A DNA stretch of 64,000 nt from Flavobacteriales bacterium. Lineage in GTDB: Bacteria > Bacteroidota > Bacteroidia > Flavobacteriales_F > PHOS-HE28. The stretch is taken from contig JADJXH010000003.1 in NCBI GenBank assembly GCA_016715895.1, forward strand, positions 325,583 to 389,582, read 5' to 3'. The notes under the pieces were generated by a model. It made no database searches. It saw nothing but the letters and a program-made list of their open reading frames with translations, and was not told the origin of the DNA. Positions 36,414-43,211 of the stretch are shown here, one piece after another (positions within the stretch are counted from its first letter, which is position 1; every line of letters starts with the position of its first letter). Made by a program: the position numbers and the translations under genes.

Positions 36414-37163
36414 TCACCGCGTCAGGTACCCGCCGTCCACGGCGTGGTAGCTGCCGGTGACGAAGCTGGCCTTGTCGCTCGCGAGCCAGAGCACCAGTTC
36501 GGCCACCTCCTCCGATCGGCCAAGCCGGCCGATGGGGTGCAGCGTGGCGATACCGGCCATCTGCTCCTGGGTGAGGTTCTTGTCCAGCAGCGGCGTCTTG
36601 ATGAAGCCCGGGCCCACACTGTTCACGCGGATACCCTGGGCGGCATACTCCATGGCGGCGTTCTTGGTGAGGCCCACCACACCGTGCTTGGCGGCCACAT
36701 AGGCGCTGCTGTAGGCAAAGCCCACCTGCCCCAGGATGGAAGCGATGTTGACGATGCTGCCGCCGCCGCGCTTCAGCATGGCCGGGATCTGGTAGCGCAT
36801 GCCGTAGAACACGCCGTTCAGGTTCACCCCGATCACCTTCTCCCACCCGTCCAGCGGATACTCCCCCGTGGGTGCGGCGGGTCCGCCGATGCCCGCGTTG
36901 TTCACCGCCACATCCAGGCGACCGAAGGCCTTCACGGCAGCGGCCACGGCGGCTTCGCACTGCGCAGCCACCGCCACATCGTTGCGCACGGTGATCGCTT
37001 CCGCACTGGCGGCCTTCACCCCTGTGGCCACCCGCTCCAGTCCAGCGCTGTCCACATCCGTCAACACCAGCTTCGCCCCGTGCTTCGCGAAGAGCAGCGC
37101 GCACGCTTCACCGATGCCGGATCCCGCGCCCGTGATCAGGGCCACCTTGCCGTTCAGGTCCAT
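36414..37163 (-). CDS. SDR family NAD(P)-dependent oxidoreductase (3-oxoacyl-ACP reductase-like)
   Basis: TGxxxGIG Rossmann motif LITGAGSGIGEA; NNAG; catalytic YSSAYVAAKHG (YxxxK); ...PGFIKTPL. Confidence 0.9.
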   Translation of the reverse strand: MDLNGKVALITGAGSGIGEACALLFAKHGAKLVLTDVDSAGLERVATGVKAASAEAITVRNDVAVAAQCEAAVAAAVKAFGRLDVAVNNAGIGGPAAPTGEYPLDGWEKVIGVNLNGVFYGMRYQIPAMLKRGGGSIVNIASILGQVGFAYSSAYVAAKHGVVGLTKNAAMEYAAQGIRVNSVGPGFIKTPLLDKNLTQEQMAGIATLHPIGRLGRSEEVAELVLWLASDKASFVTGSYHAVDGGYLTR

Positions 37164-37271
37164 GGACGCTTTCGTTTCCGGCGAACCTAGTCCCCGCGCG
37201 CGGCGCCGACCCTGAGGATCGTCAACCGGCCAACGGCCGCCCGCTACTTTTGCGCCACAACCCATTCCACC

Positions 37272-38477
37272 ATGCCCGGCACGGAGCTTTTCGGAGAAGA
37301 GGAGAAGAAGGAAGTGATGGACGTCCTGAACACCGGCGTTCTGTTCCGCTTCAACCACGACGCCCAGCGCGAGGGCCATTGGAAGGCGAAGGACTTCGAG
37401 GCCGAGGTGGCGAAGTTCTGCGGGGCCAAGTACGGCCTGGCCGTGAGCAGTGGCAGCACCGCAGTGAGCACCATGCTCGCGGCCTGTGGCGTGGGCTACG
37501 GCGACGAGGTCATCGTGCCACCCTTCACCTACATCGCCACCATCGAAGCGGTGATGCTCGCCGGGGCCCTGCCCGTCTTCGCCGAGATCGACGACACGCT
37601 CTGCATGAGCGCCGAAGGCATCCGCGCCGTCATCGGTCCGAAGACCAAGGCCGTGCTGCTCGTGCACATGTGCGGCGCCGCGGCCGACCTGGACGGCATC
37701 ATGGCCGTGTGCAAGGAGCACAACGTGCAGCTCATCGAGGATAGCGCGCAGGCCCTGGGCGCCAGCTACAAGGGGAAGATGCTCGGCACCTTCGGGCGCA
37801 TGGGCAGCTTCAGCTACGACTTCTTCAAGATCAACACCTGCGGCGAAGGCGGCGTGGTGATCACCGACGACCACCAGCTGTGGGACACCGCCCAGCAGTT
37901 CACCGACCACGGCCACGACCACATCGGCAACAACCGGGGCATGGAGCAGCACCCCATCATGGGCACCAACTTCCGCATCGGCGAGATCAACGCCGCCATC
38001 GGCCTGGCCCAAACGCGGAAGCTGCCCTACATCCTCGCCCAGCAGCGCACCCACAAGGCCATCATCAAGGAGCGCCTGTCGAAGATCCCCGGCCTGCAGT
38101 TCCGCCGCCACACCGATGAGGCCGGCGACAGCGCCACCTTCTTCCACCTGCTGCTGCCCAGCGAGCAGGTCGCCCGCGCCACTGTGAAGCTGTTCGCCGA
38201 GGCCGGCATCCCCCACGGCTACTGGTACGACAACATGTTCCACTACATCAAGCAGTGGGACCACGTGAAGAACCTCAGCATGCCCTACAAGCTGGTGGCC
38301 CACGAGCTCGGCCTCCCGCAGGACCTCAAGACCCTGACCTTCCCCAAGAGCGATGCCGTCATGAGCCGCCTCATCAGCTTCAACATCCGCGTCACCTGGA
38401 AGGCGGAGGAGCTGGATGCGATGGTGGGGAAGATGGAAGCGGCGATCGTGAAGGCGATGGAGTCCGCCTACGCTTAG
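37272..38477 (+). CDS. DegT/DnrJ/EryC1/StrS family PLP-dependent aminotransferase
   Basis: Family-specific N-terminus FGEEEKKEVMDVLNTGVLFRF. …FGRMGSFSYDFFKINTCGEGGVVITDD… region (PLP-lysine segment). Confidence 0.9.
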   Translation: MPGTELFGEEEKKEVMDVLNTGVLFRFNHDAQREGHWKAKDFEAEVAKFCGAKYGLAVSSGSTAVSTMLAACGVGYGDEVIVPPFTYIATIEAVMLAGALPVFAEIDDTLCMSAEGIRAVIGPKTKAVLLVHMCGAAADLDGIMAVCKEHNVQLIEDSAQALGASYKGKMLGTFGRMGSFSYDFFKINTCGEGGVVITDDHQLWDTAQQFTDHGHDHIGNNRGMEQHPIMGTNFRIGEINAAIGLAQTRKLPYILAQQRTHKAIIKERLSKIPGLQFRRHTDEAGDSATFFHLLLPSEQVARATVKLFAEAGIPHGYWYDNMFHYIKQWDHVKNLSMPYKLVAHELGLPQDLKTLTFPKSDAVMSRLISFNIRVTWKAEELDAMVGKMEAAIVKAMESAYA

Positions 38478-38526
38478 GCTTCGGCGGATGATAGGGGTGG
38501 TGGTTTAGGTCACCTACTTTGCGCCT

Positions 38527-39012
38527 ATGCGCATTGAGCGGATACCGGATGACAACCCTGTCGTGCCGGATGTCATTTGCTCAGAGAAGTCCGTTGGTGA
38601 ACCTGAAGTGCATGCATCAGCGCTATTTCGAGTGCATCATTCGAGCGAGAGCTTCACATTGAGGGTTGAATGGGCCAGCGACCATTCCGCCAGAGATGTT
38701 GAGGAGTCCGACTTTCTATTGATCCCGGAGACGGGAACGATCTTCTTCAGAACGTTGTATCAATGGGGGGTGCTCGACGTTCGGCGAGCGGCGCTCGTTC
38801 GACATGAGAAGGCGATGTACAGGCCATTCATCAGCAGGCATGGGAGCTTTGTCGTGATCGAAGATGAACTGCAAGCGGAGTCTACGGACCTTTGGGGAAG
38901 GCACGTTCATTCAGTACCGATCGATCCACCTTGGGATGCCGTTGAGCATGATGATCGCATCGAGTATGATTGTCCGGTGTATGGCAGGCAGGTTCTCAGG
39001 CTGACCAGGTGA
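38527..39012 (+). CDS. Hypothetical protein in a low-GC insertion
   Basis: 161-aa ORF. Local GC is about 50% versus about 67% flanking. Adjacent to the IS110-family element. No recognisable domain. Confidence 0.35.
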   Translation: MRIERIPDDNPVVPDVICSEKSVGEPEVHASALFRVHHSSESFTLRVEWASDHSARDVEESDFLLIPETGTIFFRTLYQWGVLDVRRAALVRHEKAMYRPFISRHGSFVVIEDELQAESTDLWGRHVHSVPIDPPWDAVEHDDRIEYDCPVYGRQVLRLTR

Positions 39013-40436
39013 TCTGTTCTCCTTGGAAAGGCGGATAGGACGTTCCGGCGCGGCCCAATGCGCCGCGCCGTCGGGCCATTCGCTCGTAGTCCTCGCCGCC
39101 CTCGCCCGGCCTTGAGCCGGGGTTCGTGCGGCTGTGGGCTACCCGCTGCTGCTCTACACTTGGACGCTTGGAAGATGAAGCATCTTCGAAGTGAACAATT
39201 CCTCCGAAGGAGGCTGAGCAGGATCACAGGTGAACCAGTCCGCTGCGAAGGTGTGATGACCTATAGCGATTATCGGTACCTGCGGTCCCTCAGGTCTGAG
39301 GCTTGGATAGAATGTGAGGCTCACGGCCTACTAGAGTTGTCAAGTTCAGGACCCGATGCTCAGCGCTCCCCCAGGGGATCGTGTGTCACCCAAAAGTAAA
39401 CGAACATGAAACACTGGATCGGGATCGACGTGAGCAAGGCGACACTGGATGTGGCCCTGCTGGATGAACGCGGGACGCTGACCGCTGAGACCAAGGTGGA
39501 GAACACCACCAGAAGCGTGAAGACACTACTGCGTCGATGGACCAAGGAGTTCGCACCGGTCAAAGGAGAATACCTGGTGTGCCTGGAGCCCACGGGCTAC
39601 TACGGCCATGCGCTGCTGGAAGTGTTGGTGGAATTGGAGATCCCCACCTGGCTTGCTCATCCCAACGACATCAAGCAGAGCATCGGAATGACCCGGGGAA
39701 AGAGCGACCGAGTGGATGCGCTCAGGATCGCCGACTACGCCCGGCGCTTCCAAGACAAGTCGCGGTTGTTCACGGCCGACCAGCTGAAGATGAACAAGCT
39801 CAAGCAGCTCCTGAGCAAGCGCCAGAACTACGTGATGCGCAAGACCATGCACCAGCGGCAGATCAAGGACATGAACAAGCTCATGGACAAGGACCTGCGC
39901 GGGCCGTTCACCCGGTTCGATAAGGCACAGATCAAAGCGCTGGACAAGGCGATCAAGGAACTGGAAGGCATGATCGAGGACACCATCAACGCGGAGCCCG
40001 AGTTGAGCAAGCGCTTCGAACTGCTGAAGTCCGTGGAAGGCGTTGGGCTCATTCTGGGCTCACATCTGCGGGCCCTCACCGACGGCTTCACGCGATTCAC
40101 CTCACCGCGACAGCTAGCTTGCCATGCCGGATGCGCACCCTTCGAGAACAGGTCAGGCACCAGCATCAGAGGGCGCACCCGCGTATCGCACAATGCCAAC
40201 CATACGCTCAAGGCCCTGCTGCATGTCTCGGTGGTCGGGCTCATCCGGTTCCCTGGTGAGTTCCGCGCCTACTACGACCGCAAAGTGGCCGAGGGCAAAC
40301 ACAAGATGCTTGTCTTCAACGCCATGCGCAACAAACTCATCCACCGCGTCTGTGCCGTGATCCGAAAGGGAGTGCCTTACGAGATACGAACACCCCTTGC
40401 ACACGTCATAGAATAATCCCTAACGCGGAATGCCGG
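39013..40436 (+). mobile_element. IS110-family insertion element: ~390-bp non-coding 5' leader plus DEDD transposase, with no terminal inverted repeats, as expected for this family. Left boundary approximate; 3' end abuts a family-C repeat.
   Basis: The transposase gene is preceded by a long leader containing only a 113-aa non-protein-like ORF. Element plus neighbouring ORF form a low-GC block (38480-40440). High-GC sequence resumes immediately after, starting with repeat ctgcatcatctgtgtccatccgtgtccatctgtgg. Confidence 0.55.
39406..40416 (+). CDS. IS110 family transposase (DEDD/RuvC-like N-terminal domain plus C-terminal Tnp domain)
   Basis: MKHWIGIDVSKATLDVALLDE...VCLEPTGYYGHALLEVL... (DEDD N-domain). 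...LKSVEGVGLILGSHLRALTDGFTRFTSPRQLACHAGCAPFENRSGTSIRGRTRVSHNANHTLKALLHVSVV... is a typical IS110/IS1111 C-terminal domain. Confidence 0.95.
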   Translation: MKHWIGIDVSKATLDVALLDERGTLTAETKVENTTRSVKTLLRRWTKEFAPVKGEYLVCLEPTGYYGHALLEVLVELEIPTWLAHPNDIKQSIGMTRGKSDRVDALRIADYARRFQDKSRLFTADQLKMNKLKQLLSKRQNYVMRKTMHQRQIKDMNKLMDKDLRGPFTRFDKAQIKALDKAIKELEGMIEDTINAEPELSKRFELLKSVEGVGLILGSHLRALTDGFTRFTSPRQLACHAGCAPFENRSGTSIRGRTRVSHNANHTLKALLHVSVVGLIRFPGEFRAYYDRKVAEGKHKMLVFNAMRNKLIHRVCAVIRKGVPYEIRTPLAHVIE

Positions 40437-40488
40437 CTGCATCATCTGTGTCCATCCGTGTCCATCTGTGGTTCGCTGCATTCACCCC
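40437..40488 (+). repeat. Family-C repeat (GCATCATCTGTGTCCATCCGTGTCCATCTGTGGTT...CCCC) immediately 3' of the IS110 element
   Basis: Internally three tandem CATC[TC]GTGTC decamers. Four further copies lie at 44787-44819 (inverted), 45204-45243, 45301-45345 and 45361-45405. Confidence 0.75.
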
Positions 40489-40898
40489 GTGTACACCCAC
40501 ATCCCACCCGCGCACAGCAGGAAGTAGGGCACCAGGCTCGCGGCCCCCGCGTAGTCCTTTGCCACGCGCTGGCCGAAGAAGAGCAGGGTGATCGCCAACG
40601 CCCCCAAGGTGCACCCCCAGGCCCCCAGGGTCGGGTCGCCGTGGAGGCCGACCTGCAACAGGCCGATCGCGGCGCACGCCCCGGCCGACAGTTCAATGGC
40701 CGTGATCACCGGCAGCAGCAGCGGCACCGTGCCCTTCAGCGGCGACTTCGCGAAGTGGCCGGTCAGCCAGGCCAGGTTCCCTTTCCAGTCCAGGGCCTTG
40801 TCCAGCCCCGATTGCAGGAAGAGGATGGCCACCATGGCGGTGAAGGCCATGCGCAGCAGGTCGATGCCGGTGTAGCCGAACAGGATGCCCGATTCCAT
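40482..40898 (-). CDS. DoxX family membrane protein
   Basis: About 138 aa from MESGILFGYTGIDLLRMAFTAMVAILFLQSGLDK. Four TM helices with a DoxX-like pattern. The upstream part of the ORF is an extension through repeat sequence. Confidence 0.65.
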   Translation of the reverse strand: MESGILFGYTGIDLLRMAFTAMVAILFLQSGLDKALDWKGNLAWLTGHFAKSPLKGTVPLLLPVITAIELSAGACAAIGLLQVGLHGDPTLGAWGCTLGALAITLLFFGQRVAKDYAGAASLVPYFLLCAGGMWVYTG

Positions 40899-41029
40899 GG
40901 CGTGAAGGTGCGGGTTCCGATGACAAAACGAGGCATTCCCACGGCTCGTTCGATCTGAGCCGGAAATGGGGCGGTGGATGAACATCCGGGGTGGGCGATC
41001 TCCCAACACGGTACTTGTTCAGATCCTGA

Positions 41030-41968
41030 TCATGGCAAGATGAACCGTCCGTGGCCCGTGCCATGGTCACCCGACCAGCTCAGGATGTATGCGCCTTTTG
41101 GGAGTTGGCTCACATCCAGCCCGCCATCCGACATGGACCGGCCATGGGAGACGGTCTTCCCATGGACGTCCCGGATCATCCAGGTGGCATTCGGCTCCAT
41201 TGACCTCACCCCGACCCGAGCGCCGTTGGCATCCAGCCAGATCATGGCTTCTGAAGTGGGGCTGTCCTCACTGATGGACAGGGGTGAGGTGTCCGCGCTT
41301 ATGTCGAGGTTGTCAAAAGCGGCATACCCTGATGCTTGAAGGTCGATCAGCACGGTGACCGTCCCATTGGAGGAGGCGCTAACGTCCAGAGCGGCACCGA
41401 CGGTGGTCCAATTGAAGGAGAATGGATCCGAAGAAGGGGGGCCACCGGTCAGCGTGGCATCATCCAACACCATACCGGGCGAATTGATGTTGAACGCACC
41501 CGAGGGCGTGTCGAACACGGTCACCTGGAAGATGGGAGCGGCCGTTCCGAACGGGGCACCACAACCGGAGACTTCGATGCCCGAAATGTCCATTGTCAGG
41601 TTCACATAGGGAAGACCGTCGCTGTCCAGTGTCAAGGCCGCTTTGTCATTCTGTTGGGCCGTCTGAAGCCCAATGCAGTAATCACCGCCGATGCCGGCCT
41701 GGTCGGTATACACATTACCGGGACCATTGATCAACAAGGTCTCAACAGTAAAGGTCTGTGCCCAATTGCCACCGCCTCCTGTCCCACCACCTGTGCCGGC
41801 CCAAAGATCGTTCACTGCCTGCTGGCTGATGTCCGTACCGCACGCGGCGGTGGTCACGGCCATGTTCGGGCTCGTGAAAGCGTTCGAATACAACGTGATG
41901 GTCTGGGCGACCAGCGGGGTCGTCAAAGCGAACGGGGTACCAATGGTGAAAAGGTAGATGTGACGCAT
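41030..41968 (-). CDS. Secreted hypothetical protein with T9SS type-A C-terminal sorting domain
   Basis: Signal peptide MRHIYLFTIGTPFALTTPLVAQ. C-terminal ...LPKGAYILSWSGDHGTGHGRFILP. Confidence 0.6.
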   Translation of the reverse strand: MRHIYLFTIGTPFALTTPLVAQTITLYSNAFTSPNMAVTTAACGTDISQQAVNDLWAGTGGGTGGGGNWAQTFTVETLLINGPGNVYTDQAGIGGDYCIGLQTAQQNDKAALTLDSDGLPYVNLTMDISGIEVSGCGAPFGTAAPIFQVTVFDTPSGAFNINSPGMVLDDATLTGGPPSSDPFSFNWTTVGAALDVSASSNGTVTVLIDLQASGYAAFDNLDISADTSPLSISEDSPTSEAMIWLDANGARVGVRSMEPNATWMIRDVHGKTVSHGRSMSDGGLDVSQLPKGAYILSWSGDHGTGHGRFILP

Positions 41969-42128
41969 GGTGGTCTCATTTTTCACAAAGTAAGACTAGG
42001 AATGGCCATTGTTCCCCGAGCCTGTGCTCCCGAAGAATATGGATGGACATGCATCGCGTACTTCTTCGGACCAACTGGCGGAGCGGCTTGGACCGGTCAC
42101 ATCGTCCCAACCGCTTTCCTTTGTGGCC

Positions 42129-43211
42129 ATGCACCTCTTCCGGAATTTCAAGTCCGTCACCAAGACCTGCTACGGCCGCGGCAGCTTCGGCAAGCTGGGC
42201 GAGATCCTTGAGCCGCACCGCAACACGGGCAAGGGCTTCATGGTCTTCCTGGTGGACCACTACTTCCAGGACAAGACCGACTTCCTCGCCCGCATCCCGA
42301 AGCAGGAGGGCGACGAGCTCATCTTCTGCAGCACGAAGAAGGAGCCGAGCACCGAGCAGATCGATGGGCTGCGCGACGACATCCTTGGGCGCCGCGGCCT
42401 TCCTGCCGGTGTGGTGGGCGTCGGTGGCGGCAACGTGATGGACGTGGCCAAGGCGCTCTCGCTCATGTTCACCAACGCGGGCAGCAGCGTGCAGTACCAG
42501 GGCCTCAACCTGATCAAGAAGCCCGGCATCTACCATTGCGGCGTGCCCACCATCAGTGGCACCGGGGCGGAGGTGAGCATGACCGCCGTGCTCACCGGCC
42601 CCGTGAAGAAGCTCGGCCTCAAGTGCGACTGGACCGTCTTCGACCAGATCGTGCTAGACCCGGACCTCATCGCCTCCGTGCCCACCGACCAGTGGTTCTA
42701 CACGGGCATGGACACCTACATCCACAGCGTGGAAGCCATCACCGGCACCAAGAAGAACACCTTCGCCGAGGCCTACAGCGAGAAGGCGCTCGACCTATGC
42801 CGCGAGGTGTACCTGAAGCGCGACCGCAGCGACCCCAAGAGCGACGAGCTGCTGATGGTGGCCAGCTACATGGGTGGCCTCAGCCTCACCTACAGCGAGG
42901 TGGGCGTGTGCCACGCGCTGAGCTACGGCCTGGGCAAGGTGCTGGAGATGCACCACTGCTTCGCGAACTGCGTGGCCTTCAACCAGCTGGAGGACGTGTA
43001 TGGCGAATACGTGCAGGAGTTCAAGCACATGGTGAAGGAGCGCGGCGTGAACCTGGCCGCCAACCTCAGCAAGGACTGGGACGAGAAGACCCTCGACGCC
43101 ATGGCCGAAGTGGCCTACAACCTGCCGCACATGTGGGACCACGCCTTCGGCCCGGACTGGCAGCAGGTGCTGGACCGCGAGCGGATCAAGGGGTGGTACA
43201 GGCGGATGTGA
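42129..43211 (+). CDS. Iron-containing (group III) alcohol dehydrogenase family protein
   Basis: GGGSxxD-type motif VGGGNVMDVAKAL. Downstream metal-binding His-containing blocks ...DTYIHSVEAI...CHALSYGLG...; start taken at MHLFRNF. Confidence 0.8.
   Translation: MHLFRNFKSVTKTCYGRGSFGKLGEILEPHRNTGKGFMVFLVDHYFQDKTDFLARIPKQEGDELIFCSTKKEPSTEQIDGLRDDILGRRGLPAGVVGVGGGNVMDVAKALSLMFTNAGSSVQYQGLNLIKKPGIYHCGVPTISGTGAEVSMTAVLTGPVKKLGLKCDWTVFDQIVLDPDLIASVPTDQWFYTGMDTYIHSVEAITGTKKNTFAEAYSEKALDLCREVYLKRDRSDPKSDELLMVASYMGGLSLTYSEVGVCHALSYGLGKVLEMHHCFANCVAFNQLEDVYGEYVQEFKHMVKERGVNLAANLSKDWDEKTLDAMAEVAYNLPHMWDHAFGPDWQQVLDRERIKGWYRRM

Follow-up and report, generated by a model that had tools for sequence, protein, structure and literature searches.

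The analysis of a 64,000-nt stretch of a Flavobacteriales genome (contig JADJXH010000003.1, positions 325,583 to 389,582; hereafter the window, in whose coordinates all positions without a contig name are given) revealed that 39152–40416 is very probably an intact IS110-group insertion sequence (IS), which is site-specific for a Flavo-1-like host repeat and whose recombinase is guided by a bridge RNA encoded in its left end (LE). A two-loop guide RNA of the kind that marks the IS110 group is predicted here on computational evidence. The element, its LE, guides and RNA modules, the transposase, the candidate promoter boxes and a neighbouring 161-aa open reading frame (ORF) all lie on the + strand.

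The limits of the element were fixed by comparing its copies with each other, as the initial annotation of this DNA had proposed, and with empty sites. Four IS copies are present in the genome (4.35 Mb, 5 contigs), all sharing CTCTACACTTGG...CATAGAATAA, beyond which only a degenerate repeat is common to them; the ends are identical in the four copies (CTCTACAC...CATAGAATAA). The span that the window shares with the other three copies runs only from 39131 to 40436, and its outer part is the target repeat. Three empty repeat sites in the same genome read CCGCTSC-NN-TCSSTCACGC, with exactly 2 nt at the IS position, and the orthologous site in a sister-species genome (G020) is uninterrupted and without the IS, reading CCGCTGC-TA-TCCCTAACGCG as against CCGCTGC-TG-[IS]-TCCCTAACGCG in the window. 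From the shared copy sequence, the empty sites and the empty orthologous site in G020, the IS was delimited to 39152–40416 (1,265 bp), a length in which the terminal AA is taken to be the donor's crossover dinucleotide. The insertion shows a 2-nt crossover position without a long target duplication, and a core dinucleotide of CT or TC, as in IS621, was rejected as irreconcilable with the empty and occupied sites.

The LE, a non-coding leader encoding the predicted bridge RNA, covers 39152–39405 (254 nt). Because the left boundary lies at 39152 and not at ~39013, the leader measures 254 nt rather than the 390 bp (39013–39405) previously put forward as the bridge-RNA candidate; the proposal stands for 39152–39405, while the ~140 bp of 39013–39151 are host repeat. 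At the other side, the last triplet of the element is the transposase stop codon, so that the right end has a non-coding length of 0 nt. A left end of 254 nt and a right end of 0 nt place the element in the IS110 group and not in IS1111 (criterion of PMC11208160), and an IS1111-type arrangement, with the RNA in the right end, was excluded since the right end is devoid of non-coding sequence. Terminal inverted repeats are absent, as had been expected for such an element, and CTCTACAC... and ...CATAGAATAA are unrelated save for a subterminal TAGA/TCTA. This 4-bp subterminal inverted repeat (TAGA at 40409–40412, TCTA at 39153–39156) flanks the joined ends and is the counterpart of the 2–3 bp subterminal repeat reported for the IS110 group. 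The four copies form two pairs, with three differences in 1,265 positions between the window copy and L002 and a single difference between L003 and L004, which implies recent transposition. A right-end/left-end junction (ATAGAAT-NN-CTCTA) was searched for in the assembly and none was found, which is expected for an assembly and is no evidence against circles.

The transposase, or bridge recombinase, occupies 39406–40416 and is 336 aa in length. It matches PF01548 (DEDD_Tnp_IS110, E=9.7e-22) and PF02371 (Transposase_20, E=7.4e-17) in Pfam, as well as the NCBIfam model NF033542 'IS110 family RNA-guided transposase', with 165.1 bits against a cutoff of 140, in agreement with the initial assignment to IS110. 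The nearest solved structures in a phmmer search are IS621 (8wt6_A, E=1.8e-26) and the ISCro4 bridge recombinase (E=1.2e-25), aligned over residues 3–327. Residues D8, E61, D101, D104 and S250 align with D11, E60, D102, D105 and S241 of IS621, and S250-G251 (the SG motif) with S241-G242; mutating any of the five IS621 residues abolishes recombination (PMC11208158). The full 336-aa ORF and all catalytic residues are maintained in all four genomic copies, and judging from these sequences the element is intact and was probably active in recent times.

The leader was examined among relatives from one genus of uncultured Flavobacteriales, in which 42 of the 132 genomes searched contain the transposase. 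The 45 loci of relatives encode transposases ~34–97% identical to that of the window, and a search with an LE profile (nhmmer) showed that the transposase is preceded by a homologous leader in all of them, including those of a second IS family of the same genome. The leader of the window folds with a z-score of -3.8, and the RNAalifold consensus is alike for 12 and for 36 distinct leaders, consisting of a closing stem and two stem/internal-loop/hairpin modules. In the first module a long stem is followed by an internal loop in which the two target guides surround a small hairpin; in the second, the internal loop that follows the stem holds an invariant hairpin flanked by the two donor guides. 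The target-binding module lies at 39221–39288, with its stem at 39221–39231/39278–39288, an internal loop and a hairpin at 39249–39262 (RNAalifold), and the donor-binding module at 39291–39355, with stems at 39291–39297/39349–39355 and 39301–39304/39342–39345 and a hairpin at 39317–39329 (RNAalifold and pair counts). An extra closing stem, 39214–39218 with 39359–39363, surrounds both loops. A 5′ hairpin of the predicted RNA (39165–39193) appears in the minimum-free-energy fold and is not captured by RNAalifold; the relatives carry differing sequences with hairpin potential at this position.

Covariation supports the consensus structure, and the leader shows a sign of selection. In the 12-leader alignment 94.4% of the cells are paired and compensatory changes occur in 17 of the 41 pairs, a degree of pairing and compensation that none of 500 shuffles reached, and slid-partner controls pair at 23–48%. 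In the alignment of 36 leaders the consensus has 31 pairs, 21 of them compensatory, and individual pairs of the target-loop stem show as many as 12 double changes. Between the copy pairs of the genome, all of the ~49 substitutions fall in the 1,011-nt ORF, while the 254-nt leader, for which ~10 differences would be expected under uniformity, contains no substitution and differs only by one 1-nt indel. The bridge-RNA structure, guide complementarity and covariation predicted for the 5′ non-coding end are upheld for 39152–39405, where the structure is conserved across homologous elements and the leader lies within the element boundaries. Two relatives have unusual leaders. A decayed one (L031:1295-1500) lacks the 5′ half of the target-binding module, and its ORF is broken at 155 aa. 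In L027:1182-1250 the left flank is a piece of the element's own leader (second nhmmer match at 1182–1249), which reflects a rearrangement, nested or in tandem, or else faulty assembly of the 5.3-kb metagenome contig.

In IS621, the left guides run in the same sense as the top strand at the left target and left donor, and the target loop precedes the donor loop (PMC11208160). The LE of the window contains four guide matches of 7–8 nt in the order left target, right target, left donor and right donor guide, each in the published strand sense. The left target guide TCCGCTGCGA (39239–39248) has the top-strand sense of the left half of the target plus the dinucleotide; it matches the flank CCGCTGC at 39143–39149, and the empty site at C4:1457989 over 10 nt. 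The right target guide AGCGATT (39265–39271) is the reverse complement of AA+TCGCT and matches the right flanks of L002, L004 and L021 exactly, with four of five positions matched in the window flank TCCCT. The left donor guide ATAGAAT (39307–39313) is an exact 7-nt match, in the same sense, to the right end of the IS at 40408–40414, and the right donor guide TAGAGTT (39332–39338) matches over exactly 7 nt as the reverse complement of AA+CTCTA, that is, the junction core and the first 5 nt of the IS; its TAGAG is invariant in the 36 leaders. The summed length of the guide matches was reached by 3 of 20,000 leader shuffles, before any order or loop position was required. Going by the sequence, the two bases past each right guide (AU, GU) can pair with the last two of the partner DNA, like the "handshake" positions of IS621.

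Evidence for guiding also comes from the relatives, in which the donor-loop guides and the element ends are nearly invariant while the target-loop guides vary with each element's own flanks. Among the 36 leaders, which hold 26 distinct target loops, the left guide matches its own flank over a mean of 6.9 nt and the flanks of other elements over 3.6 nt, and the corresponding means for the right guide are 4.8 and 2.5. None of 20,000 permutations of the flank labels reached the observed sums, although the leaders are kin and this figure, like those of the shuffles, overstates independence. Left guides CTCCGCAG and CTCCGCCG accompany left flanks CTCCGCAG and CTCCGCCG, respectively, and CTGGCGCGA, CTCGCGCGA, AAAAGCCGA, TTCGCGTGA and GGATCTGCGA are each equal to the 9–10 nt adjoining their elements. 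Right guides for TCGCT, GTCCT, GTGTT, GTCTC, GCGTC, GGGAT, AGGGG, TCCGT, CGCGA and GGCGCAC were observed, and each of these sequences is present at the right junction of its own element; likewise, elements with the variant right ends ATGGAAT, ATAGCA and ATAGAAAT have left donor guides to match. With so many different specificities, chance or shared descent is an inadequate explanation despite the kinship. The genus thus offers a compact natural series of ~26 target-loop specificities on one conserved scaffold, which would show natural reprogramming of bridge RNAs, and this GC-rich Bacteroidota scaffold is a candidate recombinase tool.

Two further observations were made among the relatives. 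The second IS110-group family of the same genome (G000 C3:1016918-1017993, C3:1753573-1754649 and C4:2146579-2147408; L005–L007) has ~45% aa identity to the transposase of the window, with one of the three matches covering residues 79–329 only, and has its own homologous leader, whose left guide GGGCCAAGGT, right guide GGCGCAC and right end ATAGAAATA all match the flanks. The locus L045 (G060 C2:206676-210683) encodes a transposase 97% identical in aa to that of the window, and its site fits the right guide only (GAGCAGC-GA | TCGCTC); it is a natural half-matching insertion.

The target belongs to a small family of GC-rich host repeats. Its left part in the window (39100–39151, no strand assigned) ends with CCGCTGC at 39143–39149 followed by TG at 39150–39151 and aligns with the intact repeat of G020, and its right part (40417–40436, likewise without strand) starts with the right half of the target, TCCCT, and is contiguous with the left part in G020. 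Intact copies were located at C4:1457930-1458012, C3:1221277-1221341 and C3:1574316-1574385 of the genome (G000). The matches of the intact repeats and the G020 empty site to the Rfam family Flavo-1 (RF01705) lie on the opposite strand from the IS and score 33.5, 32, 29.2 and 24.2 bits (E between 4e-5 and 0.014). As all these scores are under the RF01705 gathering score of 42 bits, the repeat is called Flavo-1-like and not a member of the family. The Flavo-1 motif was inferred computationally and occurs widely among Flavobacteriaceae; it lies in either orientation to transcripts and, in many cases, outside them (PMC9723704, PMC2864571), which is how dispersed DNA repeats behave. One arm of the host repeat, CCGCTGC-NN-TCGCT, is the target of the window-type bridge RNA, and a related class (L022, L048–L050) combines the same left guide with a right guide for GTCCT and sits in the other arm, CCGCTGC-AA-GTCCT. 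The initial annotation had named the CATCTGTGTCC repeat as a possible preferred target. It was rejected in favour of the Flavo-1-like repeat, whose general form is CCGCTSC-NN-TCSCTMACGC, because CATCTGTGTCC starts 20 nt past the IS, after 40417–40436, and is absent at the other three insertion sites. That it serves at the least as a landing pad for these elements may explain why the Flavo-1 motif has the character of a dispersed repeat.

A promoter may be formed where the two ends of the element meet. Bacteroidota promoters have a -33 element of TTTG or TTG and a spacer of ~19–21 nt. A candidate -7 box, TACACTTG (TAnnnTTG), lies at 39155–39162, LE positions 4–11, with a predicted start near 39167; the -7 box of the flavobacterial sigma-A is TAnnTTTG at -12 to -5 (PMC9723704). 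The TTG at LE positions 9–11 is nearly invariant in the 36 leaders, though it lies outside the guide-paired CTCTA. At the other end, a candidate -33 TTG, proposed by analogy with IS621 (PMC11208160), is located in the 3′ end of the transposase gene (40397–40399), and all relatives examined carry a TTG at precisely 17 nt from the right end despite variation in the C-terminal codons. Only the joining of the two ends, in a circle or in tandem, brings this TTG to a position 20 nt upstream of the -7 box, and by that analogy we infer that the junction would form the bridge-RNA promoter, with the start at the foot of the 5′ hairpin.

Taken together, these features suggest a pathway in which a ~210-nt bridge RNA transcribed from the 254-nt LE would guide the DEDD/Ser recombinase. 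Its target loop (TCCGCTGCGA, AGCGATT) would read the repeat as TCCGCTGC-RA-TCGCT, and its donor loop (ATAGAAT, TAGAGTT) would read the joined ends as ...ATAGAAT-AA-CTCTA.... By analogy with IS621, the element would leave as a circle with the junction ATAGAATAA-CTCTACAC; the joining of the ends would bring the -33 TTG into place 20 nt upstream of TACACTTG and so turn on the bridge RNA and the transposase, and the RNA–protein complex would carry out recombination between the circle junction and a matching repeat, immediately past the 2-nt crossover position.

Besides the kinship of the leaders, several points weigh against this interpretation. The site in the window is imperfect, with a right half of TCCCT where the guide specifies TCGCT and a dinucleotide TG where the guides have GA and AA. 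At the two 'core' bases the left guides have GA and GT and so mismatch the donor AA, whereas all four guides of IS621 read CT. TACACTTG deviates from TAnnTTTG at one position, and the transcript ends, the promoter and the circle have been derived from sequence rather than observed. Finally, a scan of 38300–40800 against Rfam 15 at E≤10 returned chance-level matches only; Rfam 15 holds no bridge-RNA family, so that the scan itself is neutral and it is the missing curated model that counts on this side.

Two other accounts of the element were weighed. The leader might be a mere structured 5′ untranslated region or promoter that serves translation or mRNA stability, with the protein alone picking the target. 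A conserved A-rich stretch before the ATG (CAAAAGTAAACGAAC) does resemble a Bacteroidota translation-initiation region, structure by itself is no proof of guiding, and transcription of the leader is inferred; however, it is the loops and not the stems that vary between the relatives, in step with their own left and right flanks, the donor-loop bases match the elements' own ends and covary with variant ends, and experiments on IS621 have shown the same anatomy (PMC11208160, PMC11208158), all of which makes this account very improbable. Somewhat less improbable, though still unlikely, is that the window copy is a fixed, immobile relic with inherited RNA and protein features. Its imperfect fit to the guides (four of five positions in the right half, dinucleotide TG), the lack of a circle or tandem junction in the assembly and the decay of many relatives, with broken ORFs in L029–L032, L035 and L036, would agree with a relic, yet the complete 336-aa ORF with all catalytic residues in each of the four copies, the three differences from L002 and the single one between L003 and L004, and the empty site in the sister species speak for an element that moved recently.

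A third account concerns the surroundings of the element, as the whole of 38480–40440 could be one acquired island of low guanine-cytosine (GC) content in which the 161-aa ORF (ORF161, 38527–39012) is cargo or an accessory of the IS. The initial annotation had likewise described a single foreign segment of ~1.9 kb, with GC falling from ~67% to ~50% after the DegT gene and recovering right after the transposase. ORF161 (53.9% GC) and the IS (57.7%) are adjacent, neither reaches the window mean of 65.1% or the GC of neighbouring genes such as DegT (64.7%), and ORF161 is patchy, being present in 3 of the 25 genus genomes searched. Nevertheless, GC falls only to ~54–59%, and discontinuously, because the two low-GC blocks are separated by 139 bp of host DNA (39013–39151) with 70.5% GC. 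The recovery holds for ~400 bp past the IS, after which GC drops again to 55–60% over 40900–42300, and several further 1-kb bins of the window are equally GC-poor. In G020, the DNA of DegT and of the ORF161 orthologue shows 92% identity to 37027–38984 of the window, and the repeat after it is intact and free of any IS; ORF161 accompanies none of the other three IS copies, with which the window shares only 39131–40436, the outer part of that span being target repeat. The 70.5% GC spacer, the G020 synteny and the IS copies without ORF161 contradict a single foreign segment, and we regard the island as the least probable of the three accounts, one that is barely credible. For the annotation of this region, the guided-IS interpretation means that the true element limits are fixed, that a host gene is taken out of the supposed island and that the leader would be a functional RNA gene, not spacer.

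The junctions of the element and its relatives also carry information on the crossover. Of 31 loci, 21 have unequal dinucleotides at the left and right junctions. The left one is the dinucleotide given by the target and the left target guide (AA, GA, GG, TG or TA), while the right one is the donor AA in 29 of the 31 first-pass loci, in which the right-end pattern required a final A (a restriction that a later pass corrects in part), and AG in two further loci, whose right target guide is also AG. The reciprocal arrangement, with AA at the left and another dinucleotide at the right, was never seen among the loci compared. Cleavage of the top strand in IS621 falls directly 3′ of the core in donor and target alike (PMC11208158), and therefore a top-strand product would show the arrangement observed, whereas a 2-bp staggered exchange of two strands with mismatched cores would be expected to leave both arrangements after replication. 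Predominantly top-strand, copy-out insertion has been argued from bench work in two recent preprints (bioRxiv 10.1101/2025.10.25.684509, 10.64898/2026.08.31.748434). It is conceivable, if doubtful, that the one-sided dinucleotides reflect top-strand-only insertion followed by replication in this IS clade; they would then be a natural-population footprint of the proposed copy-out, top-strand pathway, and an identical donor/target 'core' would not be required in this clade.

Compared with known systems, the element most resembles the IS621 of Escherichia coli (PMC11208160, PMC11208158; 8wt6), with which it has in common the domain order (a DEDD RuvC-like domain, a coiled coil and a Tnp domain with the catalytic Ser), a long non-coding left end and a minimal right end, an RNA made of a 5′ hairpin, a target loop and a donor loop, four guides that obey identical strand rules, a crossover position of 2 nt, a short subterminal inverted repeat and a repeated extragenic element as target. 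It differs in that its similarity to the IS621 structure is remote (phmmer E=1.8e-26), AA replaces CT as the donor dinucleotide and is not read by the left guides, an extra closing stem surrounds both loops, the right end is without any non-coding bases, and the putative junction promoter has -33/-7 boxes as in Bacteroidota in place of the -35/-10 of sigma-70. Like ISPpu10 and other IS110 elements that target repetitive extragenic palindromic (REP) sequences (Tobes & Pareja 2006 via PMC11208160; bioRxiv 10.64898/2026.03.19.712850), it inserts into a multi-copy intergenic repeat and has several identical copies per genome; the target there is the gammaproteobacterial REP, while here it is a GC-rich relative of Flavo-1, and the present element is known from its sequence alone. 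The IS1111 group shares the recombinase family and the principle of RNA guiding, but its bridge RNA lies in a long right end and its subterminal inverted repeats are 7–17 bp in length (PMC11208160). These findings will not surprise specialists, because bridge RNAs have already been predicted in most IS110 elements.

The G020 synteny identifies ORF161 as a conserved hypothetical host gene outside the element, and of the earlier description of this ORF the low GC and the lack of a named family remain, while its inclusion in the foreign IS segment does not. Its homologues show 55–84% identity; neither Pfam nor NCBIfam contains a family for it, and the Atlas yields unnamed clusters only. The Atlas structure model is confident (predicted template modelling score, pTM, 0.88), and one cluster of structural neighbours consists of Barstar-annotated proteins, with Pfam PF01337 in every member; an immunity-protein-like role may be taken from this model as a lead only. 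Just past the stop codon of ORF161, at 39040–39085, a GC-rich hairpin (cggcgcg...cgccgcgccg) was found, which belongs to host DNA and not to the IS leader and looks like the terminator of ORF161. A 113-aa ORF at 39058–39399 was discarded because it spans the IS boundary, from the host repeat into the leader. In G020, the intergenic region in place of the IS (L042:2209-2283) contains a long perfect GC-rich palindrome of the GGACCCCTTCGGGGTCC type, which gives spurious microRNA matches in Rfam and represents a further dispersed repeat family.

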